A stretch of 64,000 nucleotides of DNA, from assembly GCA_024572335.1 (NCBI GenBank), contig GCA_024572335.1_3052.1; one strand, written 5' to 3'. The first letter of the stretch is position 1, and each line of letters opens with the position of its first letter. A program made the position numbers and the translations under genes. This stretch comes from a phage. The notes below the pieces were generated by a model. It saw nothing but the letters and a program-made list of their open reading frames with translations. It had not been told where the DNA came from and searched no databases. Shown piece after piece: positions 16,792 to 37,857 of the stretch.

Positions 16792-17965
16792 TAAATTCTT
16801 CCATACCACTTAACTGCTCGAGGTCAGTTTCTAAATCAGCAGCTGATTTACTTTTACTTTCTGGAGATTTAAATTTTTCAACCTTTGAGTTAATCAATTC
16901 ATCAACTTCAGCTTCAACAATTTCATTACTATCAATAGCACCTAACTGATAAGCACGTTTAATAGCATCTCGGAATGGTTGATGCTTAAATAAAGGACCC
17001 CAGAATGTAGTGCAGTTGGTATCTTTTGCACGCCAAGATTTTTCTTCGCGAATCATCTCGCCGGTTTCTTCGTCAAGAAATTCACGCGCATACCAGCCAT
17101 TTTTAGGTTTTACTACAAATCCTAATTCTAGAGCCATATCTAACAATCCAGAATAAGGATCGATACCACCGTCAAATTTAACATCAATAAAGAATTTACT
17201 TTTTTCTTTAACGGTACGAGATTTTTCTACATTTAGAACAAATTGATATCCCTGAAGATCAGAACCATCTTTAATCTGACGTTTACCGATAATGAATACA
17301 GTATCAGCCGAATACATTACGCCTGTACCGCCTGTCATCACGGTTTTACTAAACATTTCAATTGTTTCAATTGTATGGTTAACCGCAACACATGGAATAT
17401 TTTTAATGCTAAAGTAAGGAGTAACAATACGGAATAATGACTTCAGTGATTTAGCACGAGTCATATCTGCCACAGATTTTTCATTCAAGGCATCTTCCGT
17501 TTCTTTCTTAGAAGCCATATTACCAATTGAGTCGATGAATACAATAACCTTTTCACCACGCTCAATAGCTTCAAGCTGGTTCACCATATCAATTTTCAGC
17601 TGTTCAACTGACTGGATTGGTGTATGAATTACTCGTTCCGGGTCAACTCCCATAGATCGCAAATAAGCTGGAGTGATACCAAATTCGCTATCATAGAATA
17701 GACAAACCGCGTCAGGATATTTGTTCAAATATGCCGCAACCATAGTCAAAGACATATTTGATTTAAAGTGTTTAGAAGGCCCTGCGAAAATAGTTAAACC
17801 AGACTGCATGCCGCCATCAATCGCACCAGAAATAGCAATATTAAGCATTGGGATTTTTGTACGGATTACATCCTTTTCATTAAAGAATTTAGATGTAGTC
17901 AGTTCAGCAGTCATTTTAGAAGTTGAAGCTTTAATCAAACGGGATTTTAAATCTGCAATAGACAT
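16784..17965 (-). CDS. uvsX: Recombinase UvsX (RecA/Rad51 family)
   Basis: 393 aa; Walker A GPSKHFKS; highly similar but not identical to recalled T4 UvsX. Confidence 0.9.
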   Translation of the reverse strand: MSIADLKSRLIKASTSKMTAELTTSKFFNEKDVIRTKIPMLNIAISGAIDGGMQSGLTIFAGPSKHFKSNMSLTMVAAYLNKYPDAVCLFYDSEFGITPAYLRSMGVDPERVIHTPIQSVEQLKIDMVNQLEAIERGEKVIVFIDSIGNMASKKETEDALNEKSVADMTRAKSLKSLFRIVTPYFSIKNIPCVAVNHTIETIEMFSKTVMTGGTGVMYSADTVFIIGKRQIKDGSDLQGYQFVLNVEKSRTVKEKSKFFIDVKFDGGIDPYSGLLDMALELGFVVKPKNGWYAREFLDEETGEMIREEKSWRAKDTNCTTFWGPLFKHQPFRDAIKRAYQLGAIDSNEIVEAEVDELINSKVEKFKSPESKSKSAADLETDLEQLSGMEEFNE

Positions 17966-18042
17966 TCATTTTTTCCATAGGCATCATTATATTTTCCTCA
18001 CTGGTTAAAGATAGAGTAATTATAACACAATAAATTTAGGCA

Positions 18043-18885
18043 TTAATCAACTGCTATCGGATGAATAGCATTAAACTTATGAAATGCTTCTGATTTTTCT
18101 TTGCGCGAAACACACATGCGAAGAACCTTTAATGGCTCGTCTTCTTCACCCAACGATTTTCGTTTTTCAATATTAGAAGTTTTCCAACGAGCTTGCTCTG
18201 GAAACTCTCTATTGATTTGCTCAAGCGCTCTATTATGTTTAGAATTACTACGAATTGAACTGCACCCGCCAGGAGCTTGTGCTTTTCCAGATACAACCAG
18301 ATATTTGAACAAGGCCAAATGCGGATAACCTTGATTAATTAAATTGAGAAATGCATACATATCTTCGCACAAATCAATTTTTCCATACCCAATTTGTTCT
18401 GTAGTAAGTTTTCCGAGGTCATACCATGTATTCGTGAATCCATATGAATTTTCACGATAATTACCCCAAGATGAAGTAATTTTAAAAATAGGTAGACGAG
18501 CATGACCGTGATAATACCCACAATCCATGGCATCTTCGACGTATTGAATCAATTCATAGAACTGTTCACGGGTTAATTGATTGACTTTATCCACACAACG
18601 ACGGTCATCTCTTTTTCGCATTGAACTCATACGAATAGTAGTATCATCGTCAATCATCCAGATTCGTTGACCTGCATACATATCAGTAATTGCTTTACGA
18701 GTACCGGCAATTCCGTTTACATCATCAGGAATAGTTATAATTTTAGCTCTAGACCCATAGGCATCATAATAAGCTTTTTCTTCATGTTCACGCACTACAA
18801 TATGGGGTTCATAATCAGTCGGAAACATATCAAGGGCAGAAACTGCCCCGACACGCTGATAACTTGGAATTACGAATTGAATCAT
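18043..18885 (-). CDS. GT-A fold glycosyltransferase at the beta-gt locus (not T4 Bgt)
   Basis: About 280 aa; GT2-like N-terminus FVIPSYQR and DxD-type motif IWMIDDDTTI; sits between uvsX and gene 42 where T4 has bgt. Confidence 0.6.
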   Translation of the reverse strand: MIQFVIPSYQRVGAVSALDMFPTDYEPHIVVREHEEKAYYDAYGSRAKIITIPDDVNGIAGTRKAITDMYAGQRIWMIDDDTTIRMSSMRKRDDRRCVDKVNQLTREQFYELIQYVEDAMDCGYYHGHARLPIFKITSSWGNYRENSYGFTNTWYDLGKLTTEQIGYGKIDLCEDMYAFLNLINQGYPHLALFKYLVVSGKAQAPGGCSSIRSNSKHNRALEQINREFPEQARWKTSNIEKRKSLGEEDEPLKVLRMCVSRKEKSEAFHKFNAIHPIAVD

Positions 18886-19622
18886 TTCCACTCACCTTTA
18901 TAGTCTTTTTTCACAATATGAGTTTCGCCAGTATTCCACCAATGATCAACCAAGTAAAAATGACGAGAATATACATGAAGACTTCCGACATTCCATATAA
19001 TAGAACCTGCTTTATACTGACGAGTTGAATCGCCGGCATTCAAATCAGATACTAATTTATCTAATACGTATTTTTGCCATGCATAATCATTACGGAATCC
19101 GAAGACCACGTCATTTGAGCGCATGCTTACTACTGCATTGACTTTCTTATCACGAATCAGGTACTGTACTGTATTAGTACACATGAAATCTGACATACCA
19201 TCTTTATTGTAGTCAAATTGCATGGATGGACGAGTATAAATCATAATACCACGTCGAGAATCAGGGTTTTGACCAAGTTCAGCTAAACACATATCATACT
19301 GGGCGTAGTTATCTTCTGACCAAATAGCCCAACCGTAATTCGAATTAATTTCGCCTTTAGAAGATGCGACCTGCTGCCAAATCTTTGGTGTTTCACCTGG
19401 AATATCTTTAACAAACAAGCTCTTAGATTTATACCATTCAAGTTCACGCTGAATGTATTCATCATTAAGAGCGCCAAAAATAAACGGTTCATCTGCTACA
19501 AATGATGTGCCAATAATTTCAATAGTTTTAACACCAGTTTTATCAACTACGAAATCTTTTTCTTTTAATGCAAGCCCCAAATGAAGACGGATTTCTTCAA
19601 CTGTCATAGAGTCACTAATCAT
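18882..19622 (-). CDS. 42: dCMP hydroxymethylase gp42
   Basis: 246 aa, size and position as T4 gp42; thymidylate-synthase-like fold. Confidence 0.85.
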   Translation of the reverse strand: MISDSMTVEEIRLHLGLALKEKDFVVDKTGVKTIEIIGTSFVADEPFIFGALNDEYIQRELEWYKSKSLFVKDIPGETPKIWQQVASSKGEINSNYGWAIWSEDNYAQYDMCLAELGQNPDSRRGIMIYTRPSMQFDYNKDGMSDFMCTNTVQYLIRDKKVNAVVSMRSNDVVFGFRNDYAWQKYVLDKLVSDLNAGDSTRQYKAGSIIWNVGSLHVYSRHFYLVDHWWNTGETHIVKKDYKGEWK

Positions 19623-19775
19623 TTAAACCTCAATTGATACATTCATATTTAACTTGTAACAGTAATAAACCCCAACCTAAAATAATAGTTGGAATCATAA
19701 GAGGAACCGTTACACTATAGTATATACTTATTATAATCATCAAGATTAAAAGCAACACTGCTATAATTTTGCTTT

Positions 19776-20027
19776 TCATTCCTTCTCTCTGATGATAATT
19801 ACCTGATTTGGTTGTGCAGACTTTTTAGTTTCACCCGCAATTGACCAAATAAATGTAATAAACCAACCAATAATTGACCAGTTAAACAGTAAAGATGTGA
19901 AAAAGATTCCTACTGTCGATTTTGACCCACGCATCAAGGCAATGAACCATGGAAGCATGTATATAATAATAGCCAACACACCTGAAACTAAAACCATAAA
20001 AATTGAACCTGCTACTAAAGTTTCCAT
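19776..20027 (-). CDS. imm: Immunity protein Imm (membrane)
   Basis: 83 aa, two predicted TM helices; size and position as T4 imm. Confidence 0.6.
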   Translation of the reverse strand: METLVAGSIFMVLVSGVLAIIIYMLPWFIALMRGSKSTVGIFFTSLLFNWSIIGWFITFIWSIAGETKKSAQPNQVIIIREKE

Positions 20028-20034
20028 GTTTTCC

Positions 20035-20415
20035 TCACTTAGTCAAATTTTTTACACATGAATTATAAGAATTCACTACATACTCCATCGGAGCATTTTT
20101 ACCAGTACGCCATTGGTAATTATTAGCCCAATTAGCCCAAAGCTCGGCGCAGTAGTTTTCAATTTTTTCTTCGCGTGTAATTACATCAGAATTACGATAT
20201 GCTTGAGCAGATTCATCTGGACGAATAGCTTCGTCAAAATTCGCCTGCATTTGTTCGACTGTTTGATTTGGAGCTTCTTTATAACACTTGACATTAGGAT
20301 TATAAAATTTGCTTGAACAGTTTACAATTTTTCCTACATCAGACTGATTTACTACCGGTCCTTGAGCCACACAACCAGTAAGACCTAATGCAATAACCAA
20401 AATAGCGATTTTCAT
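20035..20415 (-). CDS. Lipoprotein (imm.1 position)
   Basis: Track has TTG start; ATG at 20415; lipobox LTGC after signal peptide MKIAILVIALG; SD GGAGA. Confidence 0.55.
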   Translation of the reverse strand: MKIAILVIALGLTGCVAQGPVVNQSDVGKIVNCSSKFYNPNVKCYKEAPNQTVEQMQANFDEAIRPDESAQAYRNSDVITREEKIENYCAELWANWANNYQWRTGKNAPMEYVVNSYNSCVKNLTK

Positions 20416-20450
20416 TTCATTCTCCAAATCCGTATCAGTAGTTGATATTG

Positions 20451-20483
20451 ATATAGTACCATGGAAGAACAGTCTTGTAAACA
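20451..20483 (-). promoter_or_regulatory. Early promoter of a repeated promoter-leader cassette
   Basis: A/T-rich UP-like run, GTTTAC, GGTACTATAT -10, then conserved leader with SD GGAGA. Confidence 0.55.
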
Positions 20484-20570
20484 GTTTTGTGAAAAAATTT
20501 TTAATGAATTCTAAAGGTCCAGAATCATCTGTTTTTCATAAGTATAGATTTATATTACTTGTATGAAAAA

Positions 20571-20586
20571 GGGACCCGGAGGTCCC
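20571..20586 (-). terminator. Intrinsic terminator after gene 43
   Basis: GGGACC-UCCG-GGUCCC hairpin followed by U5 on the minus transcript. Confidence 0.75.
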
Positions 20587-20599
20587 TAGATTTATTCTA

Positions 20600-23296
20600 T
20601 CAGCCAAACAGGAAGTCTAACGAAGCTTTTTCTTCATAGTCCATACCAGCCGATTCACACATGCCTGCAAGCGGTTTAACAAACGATTTTTGGAACAAAG
20701 TTGAGTAGTCAATCCAAGACAGTACGTCAGAACGAATTTCTTTTGGAAGTTCTGTACCCGACGGCCAAGCAATGCATTTGTCACCAAATGGATTTCCTTC
20801 ACGCAATGGAAGAACCATTACTTTATTTCCATCCAAAATTGGAGCTACACCTAAACCGCTAACAGCTCGACGATAAGTTAGCACACCACGAATATGGAAC
20901 GGGCATTTAAATCCTGGCCAACCTTTATCATCATATTTCGCTATATCGTTCGCAGTTTTTACTTCAGCAATAACTTTATAGTCAAGTTGACGATATTCTT
21001 TCTCGAAGTTCTTGTAATATTCTTGGACAGACTCTTCACCTTCCTGAAGAATACGACGAATACTTTCTTCGAGAGCTTCTTGAACCGCTTTAGGCGTTGA
21101 ACTCTGCTGAGTTTCCATACCCATGATTTTTAGATGTGGTTCAGCAAAACGCTTATCTTCCATATCATATACGTTCAGAGCATAACGCTTTTTCGCTTTC
21201 CAAAATCCACCAACGCCCTTTGAACCAAGTGGAGGGCAAGAAATAGCTTCACGGTCCATATGCATCAGATGCTCGCGGTTATTCATATAATCACATAACT
21301 CACGATATGCAGCATCAATCATAGGTTCCATCTTTTTCTTACCGAACTGATTCATGAATTCAACTAAATCGTTCTGCTCTTTGAATCGGTCAAGACCAAC
21401 TTTTTCAATAACTTTATCTACACAAACATATACCGAATCAGTATCACCTGCTGCAATGAAATCTTCGCCATTAGTTCCGCATACTTTATTCAGATATTCA
21501 TTAATTTTACGAGCAATCCACTGAATACCAACTTGGCCGAAAATTGTGATAGCAGTAGCATTTCGCAAATCATAGTAACGGAAATGAATATTACCAAGAG
21601 CACCATAAAGACTGTTAATAAGAATTTTACGGTTCAGCTGATTTGTATTAGCAAGTGTAGCCGCTTTTTCACATTCTTCAATCAAACTATTGAGAACAGA
21701 TTCAGTATAATTCGATAGTTCATTTAAGAAATCATCACTGAACTTAACATATCGTTCAACTTCAGGTTTAGTTGAACAAGACCCTGCGCCTTTCATAATA
21801 ATCTTTTTAATAGCTTCGGCATTCATTTCTTCAGCGAACATTTTCTTTTTCCAATCTTTACGCTGGAAAAATACTTTAGCGATTTCCTTTGGAATGATAC
21901 CTTCTTGATGCTTATCGTACATCCATCCATTCGGAGAACAAGAATATTCATCACTCGGTTTAGGAGCTGTTCCTGCGATATATTCATGAATTGGATGAAC
22001 TTTAAACTGACCACGAATAGTCTCAGGACTAATGTTAACCTGACGAATAATGCTCGGATACAGAGACGTCAAGTCAAAACTCATAATATATCGACGAGCA
22101 ATTGGTTTAGGTTCAAACACAAATGCACCCGGAAAACTCTGTTTAACATGCGAACCTTGTTGAGGAATAACCTTATGTTCACCTTTCAATGAGTTAAAAA
22201 TAATAGCATCCCAGGTTTTAATAGGACTCATTACACCAGAAAAAGGCATTTTAGCGTAATAAGACATACTTAAAACTAGATCGATAAACCCGCGAATTTT
22301 ATCAATTGCTTGAACTGATTCTACGTCAATGATGTTATAACTAATGTATCGTTGATGATTAGTCTCACGAAGTTTATTAATAGGACCGTCGTATGGTAAT
22401 TTACCTTTTTTGGTTTCATGCTGAGCAACTGATTCCAAAGAGAATGACGGCAAATTAGTAAATGCGAATTTCTTATACAAATCTAAATAATCAAGAATAG
22501 ATACGCCATCAATAGAATAAATTTCTTTGCTACCGTACATATTTTGAATAAGTTTAGATTTTACTCGACCGATTGGAGAGAAGCGTTTCATACTACGTTC
22601 ACCGAGAACCATTTTAACACGATTCATGATATACGGAACGTCAAATCCCTCAATATTCCAACCAGTAAAAATAGCAGGTCGTTTCTGTTCCCAAAGATTG
22701 ATATATTCCATGAGCATATCACGCTCGTTATCGAATGGCATATAAATTACTCGGTCAAGAATTTCTTGAGGAACTTCATCACCACCTTCACAGTCAAGCT
22801 TAGCAGCTAACTTTGCATCCCATTTTGATACTGAACCATACATTGAATTCAAAAGGTCGAAAACATAAAAACGATCATCAATTGAATCGTAATGAGTGAT
22901 AGCATCAATTTCATATTCAGCTTTCATTGGGTCAGGAAATTTATCACCAGTAACCTCAATGTCACAGTTAGCTACACGAACAAATTTTCGGTCATAAACA
23001 ATTTCTGAACCATACGTATCACTGATATAAGCGAGTTTAAAATCGTTCATACCGAGAGCTTCGAAACCGATGTCTTCCATTCGTTTCATCCAATCTCGAG
23101 CATCTTTCATTGATGGAAATTTTTGAGGAGCGCAGTTTTTACCATAGATGTCTTTGTACTTTGACTCTTCCTTACAATGCCTAAACATAGTCGGAAGATA
23201 TTCTACTTCACGAGTACGTTCCTTTCCGTTTTCATCAATATAACGTTCAACAATGTTATTTCCGACTGTTTCGATAGAGATATAAAATTCTTTCAT
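20600..23296 (-). CDS. 43: DNA polymerase gp43 (family B)
   Basis: 898 aa; PolB motif DTDS (AAGDTDSVYV), exonuclease motifs; matches T4 gp43 length. Confidence 0.95.
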   Translation of the reverse strand: MKEFYISIETVGNNIVERYIDENGKERTREVEYLPTMFRHCKEESKYKDIYGKNCAPQKFPSMKDARDWMKRMEDIGFEALGMNDFKLAYISDTYGSEIVYDRKFVRVANCDIEVTGDKFPDPMKAEYEIDAITHYDSIDDRFYVFDLLNSMYGSVSKWDAKLAAKLDCEGGDEVPQEILDRVIYMPFDNERDMLMEYINLWEQKRPAIFTGWNIEGFDVPYIMNRVKMVLGERSMKRFSPIGRVKSKLIQNMYGSKEIYSIDGVSILDYLDLYKKFAFTNLPSFSLESVAQHETKKGKLPYDGPINKLRETNHQRYISYNIIDVESVQAIDKIRGFIDLVLSMSYYAKMPFSGVMSPIKTWDAIIFNSLKGEHKVIPQQGSHVKQSFPGAFVFEPKPIARRYIMSFDLTSLYPSIIRQVNISPETIRGQFKVHPIHEYIAGTAPKPSDEYSCSPNGWMYDKHQEGIIPKEIAKVFFQRKDWKKKMFAEEMNAEAIKKIIMKGAGSCSTKPEVERYVKFSDDFLNELSNYTESVLNSLIEECEKAATLANTNQLNRKILINSLYGALGNIHFRYYDLRNATAITIFGQVGIQWIARKINEYLNKVCGTNGEDFIAAGDTDSVYVCVDKVIEKVGLDRFKEQNDLVEFMNQFGKKKMEPMIDAAYRELCDYMNNREHLMHMDREAISCPPLGSKGVGGFWKAKKRYALNVYDMEDKRFAEPHLKIMGMETQQSSTPKAVQEALEESIRRILQEGEESVQEYYKNFEKEYRQLDYKVIAEVKTANDIAKYDDKGWPGFKCPFHIRGVLTYRRAVSGLGVAPILDGNKVMVLPLREGNPFGDKCIAWPSGTELPKEIRSDVLSWIDYSTLFQKSFVKPLAGMCESAGMDYEEKASLDFLFG

Positions 23297-23356
23297 AGAT
23301 ATTCCTTAGTTTATAGCCCGAGTTATTAGGCTCTTGATATATTATACTCCAAATAA

Positions 23357-23370
23357 GGGGCCGAAGCCCC
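23357..23370 (-). terminator. Terminator-like hairpin between regA and gene 43
   Basis: GGGGC-UUCG-GCCCC tetraloop hairpin then UUAUUUGG. Confidence 0.6.
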
Positions 23371-23374
23371 TTGC

Positions 23375-23743
23375 TTAATTACCAATCGTATATTTAGGAA
23401 CGAGTTTCCATTCATGTTTTTGTTTAAAAGAAATAACTCGGAAGTTATTAGTTAAATCTTTCATAAAAGTTCTTTGACCAGGGACGATTTCAATCAGTCC
23501 CCAATCTTCTAACAGCCATGCAATCGAATCACGACGAACTTCATCTTCTTCTGTCATTTCAACTTGACGGCCATCCATACGAAGCATTTCTTTAAAATGA
23601 ACGATATAGTATAGTCCTTTTTTCTGAAGAATATGACAGGACTGATACAGAACTTTATCTTTATTATTAGCAATTCCCATACGAGTCAAAGTTTCTTTTA
23701 CTTTCAGAAAATCTTCAGGTTTTTTAAGAGTAATTTCAATCAT
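23375..23743 (-). CDS. regA: Translational repressor RegA
   Basis: 122 aa between genes 43 and 62, as in T4. Confidence 0.8.
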   Translation of the reverse strand: MIEITLKKPEDFLKVKETLTRMGIANNKDKVLYQSCHILQKKGLYYIVHFKEMLRMDGRQVEMTEEDEVRRDSIAWLLEDWGLIEIVPGQRTFMKDLTNNFRVISFKQKHEWKLVPKYTIGN

Positions 23744-23744
23744 T

Positions 23745-24308
23745 TTACCATTCCAATGCTAGTTTTTTGAGTTGTTTCTGTTCTTTTACGTTCTTAGTCA
23801 CTTCTTTCAAAAAATCATCCGTGACTAATCCTTTAAGTTCTTTTAATACTAAAGGTAGTTTTCCATTTTTAGTAAGAATTGATTTATAGTTAATTGCATC
23901 ATTTGTATTAACTTGATACCGCTTAGCAAGTAACTTAATAATCAATACTTCGGTGGAATCTTCAACTAGTTTTGCCCATTTACCATATCTTTTACCACGA
24001 GGAACTGCAGCCATTAGATAATTAAAATGAGCTTCATCACTTAAACCTGATCCAATTAAATTCATAGCATATACAGCTGGCATGCACTCTGGAAATTGTG
24101 ATAATGCATTTTCAACCATGAATTTTGAATAATCTTTTTGAGCAATAGAGCATTTAGTTTTATTATTAATAGCTCCAATTATTTCAAAAAATTCATTTTC
24201 AGCTTTTTCTTTAAAAGAATCAGCAGCGGATTGGACAGCTGTCCAATCTTTTGAATACCAAGCAACTTGATGCTCGTTTAATTGAATATCATCTTCAAAT
24301 AAGCTCAT
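23745..24308 (-). CDS. 62: Clamp loader small subunit gp62
   Basis: Track has GTG start; ATG at 24308 gives 187 aa as T4 gp62. Confidence 0.8.
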
Positions 24309-24309
24309 A

Positions 24310-25269
24310 TCACTTCCACTGCATTTCACATGCTAACTGAATGAAAAGATAAGCTAAATGCAATTCAGTATTAGCTGCAATACCATGATACTGATTATTT
24401 TCGCCGACAATTTCGTACATACGAATAATACTCTGTGGAGTTACACGTGAATAGATTTCTTCGGCAAGTTTACCCACGAACCACGAATAATCGGCTGCAT
24501 ATTTTGGTGCTAAAGCTCTGAGTTGTTTAACATCTTTATTTTTGAGAGACTCAAGAACATCATCAATAGCACCACGATCGTTAGTAACCAGTGATAAAAT
24601 ACCAGCATCCAAAACACCTTTAGATGAATAACTATCGAGCTCGCCAATAGTTTTACGAAAATCAGGAAAATTCTTTTTAACCAAAGCTGCTACAACTTTC
24701 ATATCAGCTATAGCAATTCCTTCATGCTTGCAGATTTCAGTCAATCGACGAATCATCTGCTTCATCATTTCAATTTTATCTTCATCGGTCGGTTGACCGA
24801 ACGTAATAACTCGGCAGCGTGACTGAAGCGGTTTAATAATACCATCAATATTGTTAGCAGTAATAATAATACTACAGTTTGAACTATAAGCTTCCATAAA
24901 GGAACGAAGATGTCGCTGAGACTCTGCTAATCCTGAGCGGTCAAATTCATCAATAACGATTACTTTTTGACGACCATCAAATGAAGCTGCACTGGCAAAA
25001 TTAGTCAAAGGACCACGAACGAAATCAATTTTACAATCTGATCCATTCACAAACATCATATCAGCATTTACATCATGACACAGTGCTTTTGCTACAGTTG
25101 TTTTACCTGTTCCTGGAGAAGGAGAATGAAGAATAATATGTGGAATCTTACCTTTACTTGTAATAGATTTAAAGGTTTCTTTATCAAAGGCGGGAAGAAT
25201 ACATTCATCGATAGTAGATGGACGATATTTCTGTTCAAGAATGTGTTCTTTTTCATTTACGGTAATCAT
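24310..25269 (-). CDS. 44: Clamp loader large subunit gp44 (AAA+)
   Basis: Track has TTG start; ATG at 25269 gives 319 aa; Walker A GTGKTT, Walker B DEFD, SRC motif. Confidence 0.9.
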
Positions 25270-25304
25270 AATTTCCTCATTCAAGTTTTAGTGTAAATTA
25301 TAAA

Positions 25305-25316
25305 GGGCCGAAGCCC
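25305..25316 (-). terminator. Terminator-like hairpin between genes 45 and 44
   Basis: GGGC-UUCG-GCCC then UUUAUAAUUU on minus transcript. Confidence 0.6.
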
Positions 25317-25320
25317 TCTA

Positions 25321-26007
25321 TTAAAAATCGTGGGTAGAATCAGCTTCAAGAGCTACTACATAATTCGCGTGTTCACCTTCAAATTTAGCAGCACCTTGTT
25401 TACCTTTTGCCCAGAGCAGAAGTTTATAATTTCCTGGTTGCATTTTCATATTTGCCATATTGATAATGAAATTAAATGTATTTTCACCATCATAATCACC
25501 AAGAGTCAAAGAATATTTAACACGGGTCAGAGCAGAATCTTCTACTTTATTAAAACCGTTAATTACGATTTTACCCTCTTTTACCGTGATAGCAATTGTA
25601 TCAATCTGCAGACCACGAGATACACGCAACAGTTGTTGAAGGTCTTCAGCTTTAATTTCAGTAACAACAGATGCTACCGGGAATGGAATTGGTTTATTAG
25701 GAGCAACTACTGTACTCGGATCGGCTGCTGGCCAAAAAATTGTTGAGCGGGCATCAGCAATTTTAATATTTCCATCTTCTGACTGGGAAATTTCTGCATC
25801 ATCATTAACTAAAGACAGAATACCGAGAAAACCGTTCAAATCGTAAATTGCTACATCAAAATCAATAACGTCAGAAATATTTGCTTCCGCATAAGTTGTA
25901 CCATTAACTGCGCGAGTCATAATAAATTGACCGGATTTAAGCATAATACCAGAGTTAATAGTAGCGAAATTTTTAAGCAGAGCAGTAGTATCTTTAGACA
26001 GTTTCAT
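25321..26007 (-). CDS. 45: Sliding clamp gp45
   Basis: 228 aa, position between 44 and rpbA; middle promoter upstream. Confidence 0.85.
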   Translation of the reverse strand: MKLSKDTTALLKNFATINSGIMLKSGQFIMTRAVNGTTYAEANISDVIDFDVAIYDLNGFLGILSLVNDDAEISQSEDGNIKIADARSTIFWPAADPSTVVAPNKPIPFPVASVVTEIKAEDLQQLLRVSRGLQIDTIAITVKEGKIVINGFNKVEDSALTRVKYSLTLGDYDGENTFNFIINMANMKMQPGNYKLLLWAKGKQGAAKFEGEHANYVVALEADSTHDF

Positions 26008-26038
26008 GTAATTTCCTTCAATTCAAATGAGATTTAAT

Positions 26039-29851: not shown

Positions 29852-30011
29852 ATATCAAGAACCGTCATTGAAATGCAAAATAAAATTATTGAAATAAATC
29901 CATCTGGAGTGCTAAAGAACCCAATCCAACATGCTCTAGTGAATAGATAAAATGCAAGAAAAAGTATCACATATCCAAGAAATATCATTATATCAAACTC
30001 CGTATAAAGCT

Positions 30012-30029
30012 AAAGGGCCGAAGCCCTTT
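30012..30029 (-). terminator. Terminator hairpin at the agt stop
   Basis: AAAGGGC-UUCG-GCCCUUU then UAGCUUUAUAC. Confidence 0.6.
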
Positions 30030-31230
30030 ATTTTGTAATAATGTCAAACTGTTCTTTAAAACAGAAGCTTGAATCTTGATGCTGATACAAAAATTCATAT
30101 GCTTTTTCTCGCTCACGGTCATAAAGAGCTCGGTCAGATGACAGTTCTTTAATACGTTCAAATGTTGATTCCATATCATTTTCATCAAACCAAATGATAC
30201 CGCTATCATGCGAGGTCAAAGGAGTATTATCAACACGGAATTTTAAATTTTCGCCAGTAGATTTCCAAAATACCGGAATTGTTCCACATGCACCAAGCTC
30301 GAGATGAGTATATTCTAAAGAACGTTGTAAATATTTTTTGTCCAACTTACTCAGTTGATAACCAAATCCGGATTTACTCATGCGTTCAAGCATTTCGCTA
30401 TTTACATAACGGTCAAGAATTTGCGTTGGCAAATTAGGAGCAATTTTAATTTGGTCTACTTGATGAAGACGATAATACTCGTATGGAATTCCTTTTTCTT
30501 TAATAGGAATGAACGCTGGAGAACGTTCCAGACCTTCCATAATAGTACTTAGTCCTGCAGGTTTAAGATGTTTTTCATGAAAATCAAACATCTGATAAAA
30601 ACCTTTCCATGTAGTAGTACGACCAATCCAACGGTTGATATTCATGTTAATTTCAGAAACATCTTTCCAGTAGGTTGATCGAACCTTCGCAATATCCATA
30701 GGAGGCTGAAAGTTGTATACGGTCGGTGCTTCTTCAACATCATCAAACAGTGAAACAGTTTCTGGATACCATTCTTTCATTAAAACTTTATTAAAATCAC
30801 CATTATCAGAATGGCTAAAAATAACATCAGCTCGACGAACAGTTTCTTCTAATCCCAAATTTCGACGCAAAGAAAGAGAAGAATGGTCATGCTGATAAAC
30901 TACAACACGAACAGAAGGTTTAATGTTATCAATAATTTTTTTATAGTTATTAATAGTGTCTTCTTCAACCGAAGTAGCAGGAACTGAATTGATAATTAGA
31001 ATATCACAATCATTTACCAGCTTAAGTGTTTTATCGTATTCTTTTGCCAATAAAACCGGAATTGAAAATGATTTATAATCATGCGCGCAATTACGAGTAA
31101 ATGATTTATCTTTAGCATAAACCAAAGTCACTTCATGACCATTTTTAATAAACCAATCACGTTGCTCGAGTGAGAATTTTGTTACACCACAACCTTCAAG
31201 ACCTCGAGCCATAAAAATACATACTTTCAT
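30028..31230 (-). CDS. agt: Alpha-glucosyltransferase
   Basis: 400 aa; sequence closely matches recalled T4 Agt (MKVCIFMARGLEGCGVTKFSLEQRDWFIKNGHEVTLVYAKDKSF...). Confidence 0.85.
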   Translation of the reverse strand: MKVCIFMARGLEGCGVTKFSLEQRDWFIKNGHEVTLVYAKDKSFTRNCAHDYKSFSIPVLLAKEYDKTLKLVNDCDILIINSVPATSVEEDTINNYKKIIDNIKPSVRVVVYQHDHSSLSLRRNLGLEETVRRADVIFSHSDNGDFNKVLMKEWYPETVSLFDDVEEAPTVYNFQPPMDIAKVRSTYWKDVSEINMNINRWIGRTTTWKGFYQMFDFHEKHLKPAGLSTIMEGLERSPAFIPIKEKGIPYEYYRLHQVDQIKIAPNLPTQILDRYVNSEMLERMSKSGFGYQLSKLDKKYLQRSLEYTHLELGACGTIPVFWKSTGENLKFRVDNTPLTSHDSGIIWFDENDMESTFERIKELSSDRALYDREREKAYEFLYQHQDSSFCFKEQFDIITK

Positions 31231-31280
31231 TTAATATCCTCTTTGTTTTGGTTTATTTTACCAAAAATTTATAAAGCAAT

Positions 31281-31300
31281 ATAGGAGCCGAAGCTCCTAT
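31281..31300 (-). terminator. Terminator-like hairpin upstream of agt
   Basis: AUAGGAGC-UUCG-GCUCCUAU then AUUGCUUUAUAAAUUUUU. Confidence 0.6.
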
Positions 31301-31470
31301 CCGCATAATACACCGTATAGAGGCTCATTAGAGCTTCTAAATTTTATACGCTTATATGTTATAGTTCCTTCTGCTTTAGCTTTATCATGAGACTCTTTAA
31401 AGCGTCTCATCATTTCCTCTTTAGAGGAACGAATTTTATTATAATCTATTTCAGAAGTCTGGGTGTTCAT
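31297..31470 (-). CDS. Small basic protein (unlisted ORF)
   Basis: 57 aa hand-translated ORF MNTQTSEIDYNKIRSSKEEMMRRFKESHDK...; stop lies inside a terminator hairpin. Confidence 0.3.
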   Translation of the reverse strand: MNTQTSEIDYNKIRSSKEEMMRRFKESHDKAKAEGTITYKRIKFRSSNEPLYGVLCG

Positions 31471-31473
31471 CTT

Positions 31474-31680
31474 TCATAGTTGCCACCATTTTTTGACTTG
31501 ATAGGAATCAACCCACACTTTCATATTAGGGTCTGCTCTTACAATAGGAGGATTAACTTCTTTAATTGAACTATCATGGTATTCTTTTTCAGAAATTTTC
31601 ACACAAAGATGACCATTCAAAGATTCAGTAAATCCTGCATTAATTTTAAGACGCTTGAATTTTACGTGTGTAAGCATCAA
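31474..31680 (-). CDS. Hypothetical small protein
   Basis: 68 aa ORF. Confidence 0.4.
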   Translation of the reverse strand: MMLTHVKFKRLKINAGFTESLNGHLCVKISEKEYHDSSIKEVNPPIVRADPNMKVWVDSYQVKKWWQL

Positions 31681-31963
31681 TCATATCCTCAATTTGCGAT
31701 CTAGTAGTCTTCCAAAGAATACTGATGAGTTCATCGTTATATGGCTGTTTTAGAATATCCCGACTTTTCTTGATAGCATATTCGTATTGAGCAAAATTAT
31801 TGTTTTCAGCTGCAATCTGAGCGTGCTTATAAAGACGATTCAGTTCGCGTTTGTTTTTAGACAATAACTTATTTGCTTTTCTTTCTGCTTCAAGACGGTT
31901 CTTTTCTTCAATAGAAGAAATAAGCTTTTCCACTTCATCATTAATTTCGGGTTTATCAGTCAT
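31646..31963 (-). CDS. Hypothetical protein
   Basis: 105 aa ATG ORF. Confidence 0.45.
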   Translation of the reverse strand: MTDKPEINDEVEKLISSIEEKNRLEAERKANKLLSKNKRELNRLYKHAQIAAENNNFAQYEYAIKKSRDILKQPYNDELISILWKTTRSQIEDMIDAYTRKIQAS

Positions 31964-31964
31964 A

Positions 31965-32183
31965 TTATTTCTCTAATATAAAATAAAAATCATCATCTGT
32001 TAAATGATACCGATAGTTTAATTCTACACCATTAGATTTAAAAGCGGTATCATACGGATTTTCTGGATCAATATCAATGTCAAGAGCTAAAACTTCCCTG
32101 AGATACATTTTAAGTAAATAGGGAATAGCTTCAACTTCAGGTATTTCTTCCAAGAATCCGGAGAGGTTAATCGTTAGCCTCAT
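31965..32183 (-). CDS. Hypothetical small protein
   Basis: 72 aa ATG ORF. Confidence 0.4.
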
Positions 32184-32724
32184 ATAAAAAATCCAAACTA
32201 GGAGAATCGTCTACAACACTTTTCTTTTCAGCCCCCGGTGTTCTATAGGTTGATTCTTCGTAATGCGTCATTTTATCGTAGATGTCTTGAATAAAAGTTT
32301 CATCTACTAACGCAACCATATCGTCGTCACGACTGTCATAGACATTGTGAACGAAGTAACTGTATTTCTTTGCAACTTCCTTACGTTCTTTTTTAATACG
32401 TTGGACGAATGCATTAAAACAAGCTTGAGTTATATATGCATGTGGGTTTTTATATTTCGTTTCATCAAAATTATGAAGCCCCTTAATAGAAGCTTCTATA
32501 CCATCTGCAATCATTTCTTGTTTCCAAGACTGGGTGTATCCTGAAAAGTTGAAACGCTTAGATAAGCCTTCTGCAATAAGCATAATGGCTAATCCGATAG
32601 TATCATTCTGACGAACTACTTTATTTGGGTCTTTATTATTTGCTAATTCTGTTTTCCAATCAATAATAGCTTGTAAAAGCTCTTTATTGTTTACGTAATT
32701 ATATTTAGGCTTAGTTTCTGACAT
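32167..32724 (-). CDS. 55: Late sigma factor gp55
   Basis: Track has GTG start; ATG at 32724 gives 185 aa matching recalled T4 gp55 ([26 protein letters not shown]...). Confidence 0.9.
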
Positions 32725-32802
32725 TTTCACCTCTTAGCTCAATTCATAGATCTATTATATCATAATATTTGAAGATCTATCTTAAAGCATAGAGGATATC
32801 AG

Positions 32803-33072
32803 TTATCTAAGTAAGCAGTATGCTTGGAATACTTTCTCCATCATCTTTTTAAATTCATGAATATCTATATAATGACTAGTTAGATCAGCATGATATAAAA
32901 AGTCTAAAAACTTTTCATGTGTGCTAACATATTCGCTTTCATTTAATTCAGAAACATGGCTTTCCCAATATCCAACACCAGTCTTATTTGGGAAAAATGA
33001 AATTTTCATGTATTGGTCAACATAGAAAATGCCATAATTTTCAATAGTAATAGAAATATTAATAAATTTCAT
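32803..33072 (-). CDS. Hypothetical protein
   Basis: 89 aa ATG ORF. Confidence 0.4.
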   Translation of the reverse strand: MKFINISITIENYGIFYVDQYMKISFFPNKTGVGYWESHVSELNESEYVSTHEKFLDFLYHADLTSHYIDIHEFKKMMEKVFQAYCLLR

Positions 33073-33284
33073 ACATTCATCAACTTAGCCGCTTCAAGAG
33101 CTGCATCTAGTGAATCAAATTGATCGACATATTCAATCAGTTCGCCATAATTGGCATATAACCACCATTGGCTAAATTCATACTCAAGGATGAATCCGTT
33201 TCCTTCAATTTGAGTTAAACCAATGCCATTTGTATTTACTTCATACCCAGCAAGACGCAAATCGTTAATAAGAGCTTCGTTCAT
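33069..33284 (-). CDS. Hypothetical small protein
   Basis: 71 aa ATG ORF. Confidence 0.4.
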   Translation of the reverse strand: MNEALINDLRLAGYEVNTNGIGLTQIEGNGFILEYEFSQWWLYANYGELIEYVDQFDSLDAALEAAKLMNV

Positions 33285-33286
33285 AA

Positions 33287-33613
33287 TTATACCTTAGTAA
33301 TTTTCAGGTCTGCAAATTTTTTCTTGCGTTGATTTTTCATGCGACGAATAGTTTTATCGGAAATTTCATGCTTTTGATAAGCTTTAGATTCTACACCAAA
33401 AGCTTTAACATCAAATTCTGACAAGATATATTGAACCAGCAATTCACGGACAGTATTGCGTCCAATCTTCTGATCATTCTGTTTCATCGTCTGATGAAGC
33501 TCTTTTTCCCATTTATCCAAAATTTGAGGAGTTACAATATCGCCTTTTTCTAGCAGAGAAACTACTTTATCATATGCATAAGAATTGATGGCGTTTTTAA
33601 TTTGAATAGTCAT
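33287..33613 (-). CDS. Hypothetical protein
   Basis: 108 aa ATG ORF. Confidence 0.45.
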   Translation of the reverse strand: MTIQIKNAINSYAYDKVVSLLEKGDIVTPQILDKWEKELHQTMKQNDQKIGRNTVRELLVQYILSEFDVKAFGVESKAYQKHEISDKTIRRMKNQRKKKFADLKITKV

Positions 33614-33651
33614 ACATTATCCTCAATTACATTAAAATTTTATTATCCAAA

Positions 33652-33667
33652 AAGGGCCGAAGCCCTT
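33652..33667 (-). terminator. Intrinsic terminator
   Basis: AAGGGC-UUCG-GCCCUU followed by UUUUGG and AU-rich tail. Confidence 0.7.
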
Positions 33668-33866
33668 AGCTAAACTGTTTGGCACCCTTCCAGCCTTCAT
33701 ACATCATTGCGACTGACAATGACAAAGCTCCTTCACATGCTGCATACTTATTATTCCAGAACCAATTTAGAAAAACTTCATCCTCAATACCATTGTGTTT
33801 CATGTTCTGGAAAAATTTGGCGCGTTCTTCACGAAGCTTTTGCGATAATTTAGATTCAGGATTCAT
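33666..33866 (-). CDS. Hypothetical small protein
   Basis: 66 aa ATG ORF; stop inside a strong terminator. Confidence 0.4.
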   Translation of the reverse strand: MNPESKLSQKLREERAKFFQNMKHNGIEDEVFLNWFWNNKYAACEGALSLSVAMMYEGWKGAKQFS

Positions 33867-33998
33867 TTAAATTTCCCAATTACCATTTTCATCAATAAAT
33901 TTAATCCAGTCATTTACTGACCACTTGGTCGTATCGCCTTTTGGAGCAACATTTAAAGTGTATAATCCTTGTTTAAAAAGCATTCGTTTGATATTCAT
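33867..33998 (-). CDS. Hypothetical small protein (start corrected)
   Basis: Track ORF 33867..34082 overlaps the next gene; internal ATG at 33998 follows SD GAGGA, giving 43 aa. Confidence 0.3.
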   Translation of the reverse strand: MNIKRMLFKQGLYTLNVAPKGDTTKWSVNDWIKFIDENGNWEI

Positions 33999-34005
33999 AT
34001 TTTCC

Positions 34006-34299
34006 TCAGCTGTAACGATAGCACTCGTTTGATTTGCGCTTAGCAACTCGTTGAGAAGTATTGTAATCAAAATCATCGTCAATGTAAACTGATTTTTTCA
34101 ACTTTCTTACTTCACCACGTAATTGGCGATTTAGCTCATCTTTAACTTCTGAATCAATACCTTTCATTCTACGCCATTTATCAGAGCGAAAAATGTTTTC
34201 AACCATATCTTTATGACTTACCCCATCAGGAGCTTTACGCTTTCCGAAATAGTCATAATCACGCACTTTTAAGTCTTTACGACGATACGTTTTACCCAT
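34006..34299 (-). CDS. Hypothetical basic protein
   Basis: Track ORF 34006..34338; ATG at 34299 (MGKTYRRKDLK) follows AAGGAA. Confidence 0.4.
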   Translation of the reverse strand: MGKTYRRKDLKVRDYDYFGKRKAPDGVSHKDMVENIFRSDKWRRMKGIDSEVKDELNRQLRGEVRKLKKSVYIDDDFDYNTSQRVAKRKSNECYRYS

Positions 34300-34474
34300 G
34301 GAGTTTAATTTCCTTAGCAACTGAACTAAATACAGCACGATCGCAAATCATGCGTTTATGTAACTTGAGTATAATATAGCAAACTTCAAAACTATTTACA
34401 TGAGTAACACGAACAGCATTACCATTAATGAGATAATACTGCCCCTTTTTAATTTCTTTATCAACCATAACCAT
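34292..34474 (-). CDS. Hypothetical small protein
   Basis: 60 aa ATG ORF downstream of an early promoter. Confidence 0.4.
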   Translation of the reverse strand: MVMVDKEIKKGQYYLINGNAVRVTHVNSFEVCYIILKLHKRMICDRAVFSSVAKEIKLHG

Positions 34475-34504
34475 ATCAATTCCTCAAAGGCAATTCATAT
34501 GTTA

Positions 34505-34534
34505 ATAATACCACAGTTTGAGCTTGTTGTAAAC
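34505..34534 (-). promoter_or_regulatory. Early-type promoter
   Basis: GTTTAC, about 17 nt, GTATTATTA; SD GAGGA. Confidence 0.45.
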
Positions 34535-34614
34535 AACTTTGTGAAAATTATTTTAGGGAATGATAAGAAGGGAACGATAGCTTAGAATGGTAATATACAG
34601 AATGTGAGAAAGAA

Positions 34615-34629
34615 AGGCCCAGAGGGCCC
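34615..34629 (-). terminator. Terminator after nrdH
   Basis: GGGCC-UCU-GGGCC hairpin then UUUCUUUCU. Confidence 0.55.
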
Positions 34630-34632
34630 GTC

Positions 34633-34956
34633 TTAGTCTTCTATGATATCTCTATCATATCCAAGTGAAATGAGAGTTTCTTTGAAGTGTTTAATGTTCT
34701 TTTGTCTAGAATCATTAATGAAAATGACTGGATAACGAATGTTAAGAGATGTGAATCCAGCGCGTTTAGCAAGAGATACAATCAGCGGACGATCATACTC
34801 AATCTTACCGTTATTTGTAAGAACTTTATAGAAAGTAAAAGGAGCATTAAGCTCCTTTAGAAGTTTTGTAACTGATTGACATCCAGGACAACGACCTACT
34901 TCTTCGGGGATGCCATAGATTTCAATCTTATTCTTTAAATTCGAGTTTTGTTCCAC
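34633..34956 (-). CDS. nrdH: Glutaredoxin-like protein NrdH
   Basis: CPGC redox motif; track ORF 34633..35085 over-extends; in-frame GTG at 34956 preceded by AAGGA is a plausible start; adjacent to nrdG/nrdD. Confidence 0.5.
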   Translation of the reverse strand: MEQNSNLKNKIEIYGIPEEVGRCPGCQSVTKLLKELNAPFTFYKVLTNNGKIEYDRPLIVSLAKRAGFTSLNIRYPVIFINDSRQKNIKHFKETLISLGYDRDIIED

Positions 34957-35239
34957 GAGAAATAATTCCTTGATAAGCCCAGTATGGCGGGTTAACAGAA
35001 TCCTCACCAGAGTTTTCTTCAGGAAAATAAACCTGGATAACGAAGCCGGATTCATCAAAGGTGAAATAAGTAGTAGGCAGTTCACCTAACAAATCGGCAC
35101 GAGCGTTGATTTCTTCGAGGTCTTGTTCACGTCCAGCCCAGAAGCTTGGGTTCAGACTACATTCATAGAAATAATAGTCATTACCGAACATATCAAAACC
35201 ATTCCAACTCTCTACTACATACCGCTCAAAACTAATCAT
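34928..35239 (-). CDS. Hypothetical protein
   Basis: 103 aa ORF upstream of nrdH. Confidence 0.45.
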   Translation of the reverse strand: MISFERYVVESWNGFDMFGNDYYFYECSLNPSFWAGREQDLEEINARADLLGELPTTYFTFDESGFVIQVYFPEENSGEDSVNPPYWAYQGIISRGTKLEFKE

Positions 35240-35241
35240 AA

Positions 35242-35457
35242 TTAAGCCTTTTTATCAAGAACAGCATTCAGCTTGTTAGTAATTTTATCCAGACGCTTAT
35301 TGAACTCACTAGAAGATAAGCCCTTTTCTGGAGAAATTAAACTAATAACGAAAAATACAACAATAAAAGGAATAAGAAAAATAGCTCCAACTGCCATAAA
35401 CAAAAAGAACGTTACAGTTGTAAGAAAATCAGCTAAACCTTTACGAAATTTATACAT
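35242..35457 (-). CDS. Small membrane protein
   Basis: 71 aa; hydrophobic stretch FLFMAVGAIFLIPFIVVFFVISLI. Confidence 0.45.
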   Translation of the reverse strand: MYKFRKGLADFLTTVTFFLFMAVGAIFLIPFIVVFFVISLISPEKGLSSSEFNKRLDKITNKLNAVLDKKA

Positions 35458-35572
35458 ATTTTACCCTTAATTGATTAACCAAGCATTGATAAGCACTAAA
35501 CTATATTGGGAATAAAATTCTGGACCAAAATGAAAAATCATATCATTTATAGTATCCATAATGTAATTCAGT

Positions 35573-36043
35573 TTAATCATGTTTCCACACCCCATCGGTA
35601 TTTGACCAAAGTCGCTGATTATCTGATCCTCGCCACAGCTTTTTGGTCGGAAGATTTTTCTCATACTTCCCATCAATAATAACATCAACATATTTAAGCA
35701 TTTCTAGTTGTTTAATATCTTCAAACTTATATCCTGTCCACAACCAAATGCTTTTATTGGGATAAAGATTTTTAACTGTTTGAACGATGCAATGAATCAC
35801 GTCTCTGTTATCAGGATAAAGAGGGTCACCTCCGGTTATAGTTAATCCTTCTATATAATCATTATTCAAACATTCAATTAATTGTTCTAGTGTTTCACCA
35901 GTGAATGGAATACCATTTCTAGCATTCCATGTTGATTTATTATAACACCCTTCACATTTATGCAAACAACCTGTAACGAAAAGAACGGTCCTGCAGCCAG
36001 GACCATTAACAAAATCGCAAGGATAAAATCTATCATAATTCAT
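35573..36043 (-). CDS. nrdG: Anaerobic ribonucleotide reductase activating protein NrdG (radical SAM)
   Basis: 156 aa; CxxxCxxC cluster motif GCLHKCEGC. Confidence 0.85.
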   Translation of the reverse strand: MNYDRFYPCDFVNGPGCRTVLFVTGCLHKCEGCYNKSTWNARNGIPFTGETLEQLIECLNNDYIEGLTITGGDPLYPDNRDVIHCIVQTVKNLYPNKSIWLWTGYKFEDIKQLEMLKYVDVIIDGKYEKNLPTKKLWRGSDNQRLWSNTDGVWKHD

Positions 36044-37857
36044 TGGTGCTTAACCCTATGCATGATTTCTTTATTTTTGCCGAGATTAAATCCGCGTTCG
36101 TTCGGATTTCCAAGATAGCCGCATGTTCTTCTTATTGTGTTCATCTTTTTAGGATCAGTTTCTCCACAGATAGAACAAACAAATCCGTTTTCAGTAGGAG
36201 TCATTTCATGGGTGCTTCCGCATGTAAAACATTTATCTACTGGCATATTAACACCAAAATAATCTAAATGTTGTGCAGCATAATCCCATACAGCCTCAAG
36301 GCCTTTTAGGTTATTTTTCATATCAGGAAGTTCAACATAAGAAATGTGACCACCTGTCGCAATGAAATGATATGGCGCTTCACGAGAAATCTTTTCAAAC
36401 GGAGTAATATTTTCTTCTACTGAAACATGGAAACTGTTAGTGTACCATCCTTTATCGGTAACATCTTTTACACTTCCATATTTTTCTGTATCAAGTTTAC
36501 AGAAGCGATAACAAAGGTTTTCAGCAGGAGTCGAATACAAACTAAAAGCAAACCCAGTTCTTTCAGCCCACTGTTTAAGACGAGCATTCATTTTAGTTAA
36601 AATTTCTTGTCCAATGTCACGACCGACAAGAATATTCAATTCATGAATACCAATGTATCCTAAAGACACTGAACTTCTACCGTTTTTAAATAACTCAATT
36701 ATGTCGTCATCAGGTTTAAGACGAACCCCGAATGCACCTTCTTGGTAAAGAATAGGAGCAACAGTAGCTTTAACTCCTTTTAAGGAACTAATTCTACACA
36801 TCAAAGCTTCAAAACACAAATCCATACGTTCATTGAATAATTCAACAAATTTCTGTTCATTGAACTGTGTTCCAATATAAGAATCCAACGCGATGCGAGG
36901 AAGATTCAGTGTTACAACACCAAGATTATTACGTCCATCAAGAATTTCATTACCAGTCGAATCTTTCCATACGCTCAAGAAACTACGGCAACCCATTGGA
37001 GAAACAGGAATAGATGAACCGGTGATAGCTTTATTATTCTTAACTGAAATAATATCAGGATACATCCTTTTGCTTGCACACTCTAGAGCAAGCTGCTTAA
37101 TATCATAGTTCGGATCGTCTTTATAAAGATTAACGCCTTCTTCAACGAACATAACAAGTTTAGGAAAAATAGGAGTTATCCCATCACGACCAAGACCTTT
37201 AATACGATTTTTCAGAATTGCTTTCTGAATCATTCGTTCAGTCCAGTCAGTTCCCGTACCAAATGTAATTGTTACAAAGGGAGTCTGTCCGTTTGAACTA
37301 AAGAGAGTATTTACTTCATATTCATAAGCTTGGAATGCATCGTATACGTCTTTTTCTGTTTTAGATTGGGCATAATTCAGTGCATCGGCGATTTGCCATT
37401 TTTCTGCGTCCTCGATATGTTTTGCATAGGTGCGTTTAACATAAGGAGAAAGTACTTTATCTACATTCGCAAAAGTCGTTCCGCCGTATTGGTGAGAAGC
37501 AACCTGTGCGGTAATTTGTGCCATAATTGCAGTAGCAACGCCAATTGATTTAGGAGTTTCAATCTGTGCATTACCAAGCTTAAATCCGTTTTCAAGCATT
37601 CCTTTTAAATCTACTAAACAACAATTAGTAAATGGAAGAGCAGGGGAATAATCAATATCATGGAAATGAATAATTCCGCTTTCATGCGCTTTCATAATAA
37701 AAGACGGGACCATATTTTTGGCAATGTGTTTAGACACAATACCAGCCATAAGGTCCCGTTGAGTTGGAAAAACACGAGAATCTTTATTAGCATTCTCGTT
37801 TAAAAGGTCTTTATTAGTTTTATGAATCAATCCTTCAATTTCTTTTTCAATTGTCAT
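36040..37857 (-). CDS. nrdD: Anaerobic ribonucleotide reductase NrdD, uninterrupted
   Basis: 605 aa continuous ORF; C-terminal glycyl radical motif RRTCGYLG and Zn site CFTCGS...CSICG. Confidence 0.9.
   Translation of the reverse strand: MTIEKEIEGLIHKTNKDLLNENANKDSRVFPTQRDLMAGIVSKHIAKNMVPSFIMKAHESGIIHFHDIDYSPALPFTNCCLVDLKGMLENGFKLGNAQIETPKSIGVATAIMAQITAQVASHQYGGTTFANVDKVLSPYVKRTYAKHIEDAEKWQIADALNYAQSKTEKDVYDAFQAYEYEVNTLFSSNGQTPFVTITFGTGTDWTERMIQKAILKNRIKGLGRDGITPIFPKLVMFVEEGVNLYKDDPNYDIKQLALECASKRMYPDIISVKNNKAITGSSIPVSPMGCRSFLSVWKDSTGNEILDGRNNLGVVTLNLPRIALDSYIGTQFNEQKFVELFNERMDLCFEALMCRISSLKGVKATVAPILYQEGAFGVRLKPDDDIIELFKNGRSSVSLGYIGIHELNILVGRDIGQEILTKMNARLKQWAERTGFAFSLYSTPAENLCYRFCKLDTEKYGSVKDVTDKGWYTNSFHVSVEENITPFEKISREAPYHFIATGGHISYVELPDMKNNLKGLEAVWDYAAQHLDYFGVNMPVDKCFTCGSTHEMTPTENGFVCSICGETDPKKMNTIRRTCGYLGNPNERGFNLGKNKEIMHRVKHQ

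Follow-up and report, generated by a model that had tools for sequence, protein, structure and literature searches.

The 64,000-nucleotide stretch analysed here, contig GCA_024572335.1_3052.1 of GenBank assembly GCA_024572335.1 (hereafter the window), comes from a Tequatrovirus in which the mobile elements of phage T4 are missing from their usual places. All seven sites in the window at which T4 carries a homing endonuclease gene (HEG), namely segF, segA, mobB, mobC, the nrdD intron with I-TevII, mobD and segB, are empty. We put the probability at about 0.93 that the window belongs to a phage of the T2/wV7 type with ordinary unoccupied alleles at these loci and that nothing is hidden there. 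In the gene arrangement, neighbouring genes abut or overlap (an ATGA overlap at nrdG/nrdD, 77 nt between uvsX and a glycosyltransferase gene, 66 nt between a-gt and a-gt.2), nrdD is continuous, and genes for tRNA-Asn and tRNA-Tyr replace segB. The alleles equal those of T2, and the elements are absent without remnants. A preliminary description of the same DNA, concerned with positions 17965-37857, had proposed endonuclease-free alleles, a claim supported here by synteny, by domain and RNA-family searches and by comparison with T2 and wV7.

When the interval 17965-37857 was compared with 50,697 phage records by megablast, its closest relatives, at ~98% identity, proved to be Shigella phage ESh32, the Escherichia phages wV7 and AR1 and several Yersinia phages. 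The interval matched 1145 records, of which 489 cover 80% or more of the query and 538 are at least 90% identical; among the top-scoring relatives this 20-kb region is most compact in the window. Colinearity with the T4 reference NC_000866 spans ~6.9 kb to 73 kb (blastn), and the orthologous genes that flank the HEG sites of T4 mostly share 92-99% DNA identity with it. The deletions relative to T4, as defined by blastn and pairwise alignment, fall exactly at segF, segA (together with b-gt), mobB, mobC, the nrdD intron, mobD and segB. All genes of 17965-37857 are carried by the minus strand. Apart from three open reading frames (ORFs) considered below, every ORF of this interval is an at least 79-99% identical orthologue of a non-HEG gene of T4; gp43, gp46 and nrdD have the lengths seen in T4, the block aligns to T4 as one unbroken 12.3-kb match, and no unassigned DNA is left.

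The nrdD gene (36040-37857, minus strand) is a single uninterrupted ORF of 605 codons, recognised over its full length by Pfam NRDD, and its product is identical at 599 of 605 positions to the T4 NrdD obtained from the spliced exons. At the nucleotide level the gene is 96.2% identical to T4 overall and colinear with its spliced nrdD across the intron site, the 1033-nt intron with I-TevII being missing to the exact nucleotide. The equivalent of the I-TevII homing site is the 30-nt segment 37300-37329 (minus strand), with the intron insertion point between 37320 and 37319. This segment differs from the spliced junction of T4 at seven positions, all of them synonymous, which is the maximum for any 30-nt segment of nrdD, and it is identical in T2, wV7 and Salmonella phage Jbel. 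Among ~1060 records with an uninterrupted nrdD junction, none matches the spliced T4 junction at more than 94.9%. Thus, the T4 flank haplotype is confined to intron-bearing nrdD genes, as expected if flanking exon was co-converted with the intron, and the silent cluster is best read as exon sequence that was co-converted along with the T4 intron. That the cluster might be an immunity allele found in this phage alone was also considered, and rejected because the T2, wV7 and Jbel sequences are identical and the T4 version is found only with the intron.

The adjacent nrdG gene (35573-36043, minus strand; 156 aa, Pfam Fer4_12 / Radical_SAM) abuts nrdD, its ATG overlapping the nrdD stop codon by 4 nt (ATGA) in the sequence ...CACCAATGAATT... 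This overlap leaves no space for mobC, segH or the other HEG that relatives carry there, and the ~600-bp mobC of T4 is absent. The junction is a hot spot for endonuclease genes: 32 relatives carry a different endonuclease gene at nrdG/nrdD (phrog_655 "homing endonuclease", E = 7e-37), and Jbel, although 97.7% identical, differs from the window in having a 279-aa HEG between nrdG and nrdD (18571-19410 of the Jbel stretch compared).

At the segA locus, the uvsX recombinase gene (16784-17965, minus strand; 393 aa, Pfam T4_UVSX_C and RecA) starts at 17965 and the stop codon of the glycosyltransferase gene lies at 18043, so that exactly 77 nt (17966-18042) separate them; by synteny this spacer is the empty segA site, arranged as in T2 and wV7. 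The glycosyltransferase gene (18043-18891, minus strand) encodes 282 aa, matches Pfam TAGT (E = 1e-9) and phrog_842 (E = 2e-89), and replaces both segA and b-gt of T4; in wV7 and T2 the product is annotated as beta-glucosyl-HMC-alpha-glucosyltransferase. The mobB locus, flanked by the alpha-glucosyltransferase gene a-gt (30028-31230, minus strand; 400 aa, Pfam AGT, E = 4e-237), is reduced to the 66-nt a-gt/a-gt.2 spacer at 31231-31296, in which MobB has no tblastn match; between the aligned blocks it measures 861 bp in T4 and 24 bp in the window. Likewise, the spacer between soc and gene 56 (9670-9751), which by alignment and the ORF list is the empty segF site, has ~80 bp as opposed to 696 bp in T4. 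The flanks of the sites diverge from T4 beyond the background of ~95% identity, to 71% in gene 56, 82% at the 5' end of uvsX and 79% at the 3' end of nrdG.

The two remaining loci hold other genes. The tRNA cluster at 62694-63024 (minus strand; ARAGORN, Rfam) reads tRNA-Arg, tRNA-Asn, tRNA-Tyr and tRNA-Met(CAU), where T4 has tRNA-Arg, segB and tRNA-Ile. It is thus a segB-less cluster of the T2L type, with tRNA-Asn and tRNA-Tyr in place of segB, and a motif search places the core of the SegB site, GGTTCGAATCC, in its tRNA-Asn gene. The mobD position (47682-48670, minus strand) is occupied by two non-endonuclease ORFs, a membrane protein (166-aa segment; phrog_944) and a y05I-like protein (175-aa segment; Pfam T4_y05I_N/C), both segments being counted from stop to stop. 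We considered whether the 962 bp of non-T4 DNA at this site might represent a different HEG, and rejected this given what the two ORFs encode. The y05I-like protein is an extra paralogue of a putative transcription factor, and its gene adjoins the regular y05I-like gene at 48674-49252.

Direct searches agree with the synteny. In six frames, 289 stop-to-stop segments 30 aa or longer overlap 17900-37900, and all of these, joined by XXX, were compared with Pfam-A (E<=0.1); a separate scan at E<=0.01 covered the seven large genes, and one at E<=0.05 the rest of the coding strand of the window. None of GIY-YIG (PF01541 / PF19835), HNH (PF01844 and relatives), LAGLIDADG, NUMOD or intein families was recovered from the six frames of 17900-37900, nor was any HEG family of Pfam found in the seven large genes or the remaining coding strand at their respective thresholds. 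On the plus strand of 17900-37900 Pfam detects no nuclease family, the one match being a sub-threshold hit to AmpE (E = 0.049). The nuclease families seen near the region are those of gp46/gp47 and the Endonuclease_7 domain of gp49, normal T4 recombination enzymes; gp49 (37854-38327), the endonuclease VII that serves T4 as its normal resolvase, is the sole beta-beta-alpha-Me protein found. In tblastn searches of the whole window with 15 HEG proteins of T4, nothing better than E = 0.028 was obtained, no match of SegA-G or I-TevI/II fell below E = 0.3, and the seven sites yielded no trace of a HEG. The weak matches of MobC to gp47 (E = 0.028), of MobE (0.057) and of I-TevIII (0.17) were dismissed as chance, since each lies on the wrong strand or within a conserved gene that is not a HEG. 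Rfam found no group I (RF00028) or group II intron at gathering score in the 64 kb, where it recovered tRNAs only, and nothing intron-like at E<=1 within 17500-38500; two sub-threshold matches, to SR1 antisense and BSR0709 (E ~0.7), were rejected. As positive controls, the same Rfam search scores the T4 nrdD intron at 105 bits, and Pfam recognises eight of ten T4 HEGs, including SegA, SegB, I-TevI, I-TevII, MobB, MobC, MobD and MobE.

The particulars of the preliminary description, namely an uninterrupted 605-codon nrdD overlapping nrdG by 4 nt, a distance of 77 nt between uvsX and the glycosyltransferase, and the lack of ORFs with GIY-YIG or HNH signatures, are borne out by coordinates, sequence, the Pfam NRDD match, the six-frame Pfam scan and tblastn. 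The two analyses it had suggested, a six-frame profile search and an alignment with T4 nrdD, show GIY-YIG, HNH and LAGLIDADG domains to be absent across 17900-37900 and the intron to be absent from nrdD. Its expectation that no ORF left as hypothetical would hold an endonuclease domain stands for 17965-37857; outside that interval it needs qualification, as the ORF at 11110-11670 has a predicted restriction-endonuclease fold of a family other than those of HEGs.

The window shares its architecture gene for gene with T2 and wV7, including the order uvsX, beta-alpha-gt, gene 42. In T2, nrdG overlaps an uninterrupted nrdD, the 30-nt junction is the same and the 186-aa ORF at 11110-11670 has a counterpart preceding dam, while T2L likewise has tRNA-Asn and tRNA-Tyr in its cluster and lacks segB. 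T2-type HEG-free junctions are thus found at the uvsX, nrdG-nrdD, nrdD and tRNA loci, by annotation and sequence of T2. T2 differs from the window in having a split mob-like gene between its genes 46 and 46.1 (18902-19754 of the T2 stretch compared). T4 differs by the presence of the seven elements, by b-gt where the window has beta-alpha-gt, and by the 7 mismatches in the 30-nt junction. The HEGs of these close relatives, in Jbel at nrdG-nrdD and in T2 at 46-46.1, occupy positions for which neither the window nor the T4 catalogue has an element.

In the phage collection the T4 elements are rare, the nrdD intron occurring in 25 records, mobC in 32, full-length mobB in 26 and segA in 26, mostly T4 isolates, among roughly 490-540 close relatives. 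The endonuclease-free state is hence that of most Tequatrovirus genomes and not peculiar to this one; it is T4 that is the exception, and empty sites are the normal state of its relatives, as was already known. Empty alleles are a textbook property of T2-type phages (PMC2988022, PMC2330249), and T4 with its 15 HEGs has been called "an oddity" in the literature. The finding itself therefore matters little, being one of unoccupied targets of T4 HEGs of a kind described since the 1980s-2000s. For annotation it indicates a genome with no introns, a T2-type set of glucosylation genes and a T2L-type tRNA cluster.

T2 / T2L, RB1, RB3, RB32, wV7 and AR1 form the HEG-poor T-even genomes that are recipients in T4 homing and marker exclusion. 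Brok-Volchanskaya et al. found that T2L, RB1 and RB3, which lack segB, are cut by SegB in tRNA-Asn (PMC2330249), and marker exclusion with co-conversion is known for T2 markers in general (PMC2988022). By analogy with the published T4 x T2 work, the alleles of the window would be recipients of homing. During co-infection with T4, its endonucleases would be expected to cut in or near the sites, for example SegB in tRNA-Asn, and repair from the T4 copy would convert the sites and the flanking DNA to the occupied state, that is, marker exclusion with co-conversion. The markers of this phage at these loci are predicted to be lost when it is crossed with T4.

Several points weigh against the reading of the window as a phage with plain unoccupied alleles. 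Cleavage of the sites of this particular phage by I-TevII or other T4 enzymes is a prediction from the T4 x T2 work. Pfam misses SegF and SegG of T4, and the catalytic domain of the Jbel HEG is visible only with PHROGs; a domain search by itself is not exhaustive for divergent phage HEGs, and the blindness of Pfam to SegF and SegG makes tblastn and synteny evidence necessary as well. Synteny, tblastn and a PHROG comparison of the few ORFs foreign to T4 make up for this. Lastly, the window does carry a nuclease-like accessory gene elsewhere, the ORF at 11110-11670.

This ORF (minus strand; 186 aa) lies between gene 61 and dam (10331-11110, minus strand), a D12-class N6-adenine DNA methyltransferase gene (Pfam MethyltransfD12, E = 1e-49), and its stop codon overlaps the dam ATG by 1 nt. 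A restriction-endonuclease-like fold with conserved D...(D/E)xK residues is predicted for its product: E23, D72, E85 and K87, which make up the PD-(D/E)xK signature, do not vary among nine sequences, the most distant of which is 32% identical, and the PADLOC profile REase_II is matched at E = 9e-5. Pfam DpnII (E = 0.0048; 16.7 bits, below its cut-off of 23) and BanI (E = 0.0099; 15.3 bits, below its cut-off of 28) are approached only from below threshold, NCBIfam returned no restriction-enzyme family but only a chance sub-threshold match, and a profile search gave no match to any PDB sequence. The ORF belongs to a tiny family, of which 1.84 billion proteins include 11 representatives. In every member with a readable context (the window, T2, Klebsiella phage Shinkou and four metagenomic lineages) a D12-class Dam methyltransferase gene directly follows or overlaps it. 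The pair is contiguous in 149 records of the phage collection. In ~33 others, which make up the T4 lineage, a frameshifted remnant of the ORF, its final ~87 nt, is all that precedes dam. Neither gene is present in wV7, the single relative without dam that was examined. The putative restriction gene thus never occurs without the methyltransferase gene, and the methyltransferase gene sometimes occurs without it, which is the pattern expected of a restriction-modification (R-M) cassette. The ORF is annotated as "hypothetical" in every record listed; a literature search, limited in extent, found no description of it, and one may exist.

These features make it conceivable, at odds somewhat short of even, that the ORF and dam (10331-11670) form a mobile R-M-like cassette with a HEG-like role against dam-less co-infecting phages. 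The resemblance is to Type II R-M systems (of the DpnII/MboI type, with MunI/EcoRI-class PD-(D/E)xK enzymes) in the restriction-endonuclease fold, the D...ExK residues and the coupled D12-class (GATC-type) methyltransferase. The REase_II and DpnII matches, the four invariant residues, the MethyltransfD12 gene directly after the ORF in every lineage examined and the patchy distribution (149 pairs, ~33 cases of dam with the 87-nt remnant, neither in wV7) all favour it. Unlike the Type II cassettes, however, the ORF has only 186 aa, scores below the DpnII threshold and resides in a lytic phage whose DNA contains glucosylated hydroxymethylcytosine (glucosyl-hmC). All its family scores fall below curated thresholds, the nuclease role is a putative one, and its target is unclear, the host DNA being Dam-methylated and the phage DNA glucosyl-hmC. 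The ORF is moreover annotated as hypothetical, belongs to none of the GIY-YIG, HNH and LAGLIDADG families of HEGs, lies outside 17965-37857 and does not occupy a HEG site of T4.

The ORF-dam pair may be a selfish nuclease module of a kind not recognised so far. If the ORF were active, the T-even Dam would be the methyltransferase half of an R-M cassette whose restriction gene was deleted in T4, and the cassette could attack GATC sites of dam-less relatives, leading to marker exclusion across the genome; we regard this as doubtful at present. Of the 16 possible 4-bp palindromes, none is as strongly depleted as GATC, which has observed/expected ratios of 0.36 in the window (1-64000) and 0.34 in T4, the next lowest palindrome standing at ~0.7; a depletion of this strength (~0.35) would fit a cassette that attacks GATC sites of dam-less relatives. 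An active nuclease here would change the view of the classic "orphan" Dam methyltransferase of T2/T4 and would add an R-M-type weapon to inter-phage competition. The dam-linked ORF is the one item in the window that merits a separate look.

A different history of the same sites would be that they are secondarily empty, an ancestor having carried T4-like HEGs and the intron, which later disappeared, either deleted precisely or converted by an empty allele. Cycles of HEG gain and loss are the accepted life history of such elements, and degenerate HEGs do occur among the relatives, namely mobA and I-TevIII in T4 and the split mob-like gene in T2. We consider secondary loss improbable, given that none of the seven sites retains HEG remnants, that the intronless haplotype is common to T2, wV7 and Jbel, and that the T4 flank haplotype occurs only with the intron; together these indicate that T4 represents the derived state.

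The three ORFs of 17965-37857 without a T4 orthologue are the glycosyltransferase gene (18043-18891) and two genes for small conserved proteins, at 32803-33072 (89 aa; DUF7200, phrog_1822) and 34928-35239 (103 aa; phrog_2749), the latter two being conserved in wV7 and RB69; in none of the three did Pfam, PHROGs, PADLOC or NCBIfam give a nuclease signal. That one of them hides a HEG of a family too divergent for the searches, a thought invited by the failure of Pfam on SegF, SegG and the catalytic half of the Jbel HEG, is hardly credible, with one of them being the beta-alpha-glucosyltransferase of phrog_842 and the others small conserved proteins, all remaining ORFs orthologues of non-HEG T4 genes, no DNA left unassigned and the plus strand devoid of nuclease families.

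Elsewhere in the window, a further ORF of 116 aa (62328-62675, minus strand; phrog_3355) lies between an rnaD-like RNA and tRNA-Arg; it was considered as a possible HEG and rejected, as Pfam, PHROGs, PADLOC and NCBIfam gave no nuclease signal. Two unknown ORFs have been described from the tRNA region of T2L (PMC2330249), and it may be one of these. At 56536-57018 one 160-aa stop-to-stop ORF (DUF7412) stands for the denV-ipII-ipIII block of T4, and no homologue of denV (endonuclease V) was found anywhere in the window. From its first Met the ORF reads MKTYQEFI..., which we take to resemble the N-terminus of the T4 internal proteins. A 170-aa stop-to-stop ORF at 61469-61978 (minus strand), absent from T4 and matching no Pfam family, begins from its first Met with MKSYTQFLNEA..., presumably another start of this kind. 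Finally, a 118-aa ORF at 13164-13520 (minus strand) matches only the C-terminal half of AdfA (anti-DarT factor A; E = 1e-7) and lies directly downstream of the full-length AdfA/61.2 gene (13522-14163, minus strand), both ending in ...SIDDQIFNAFMN. It looks like a partial tandem duplication of AdfA/61.2 that is absent from T4.

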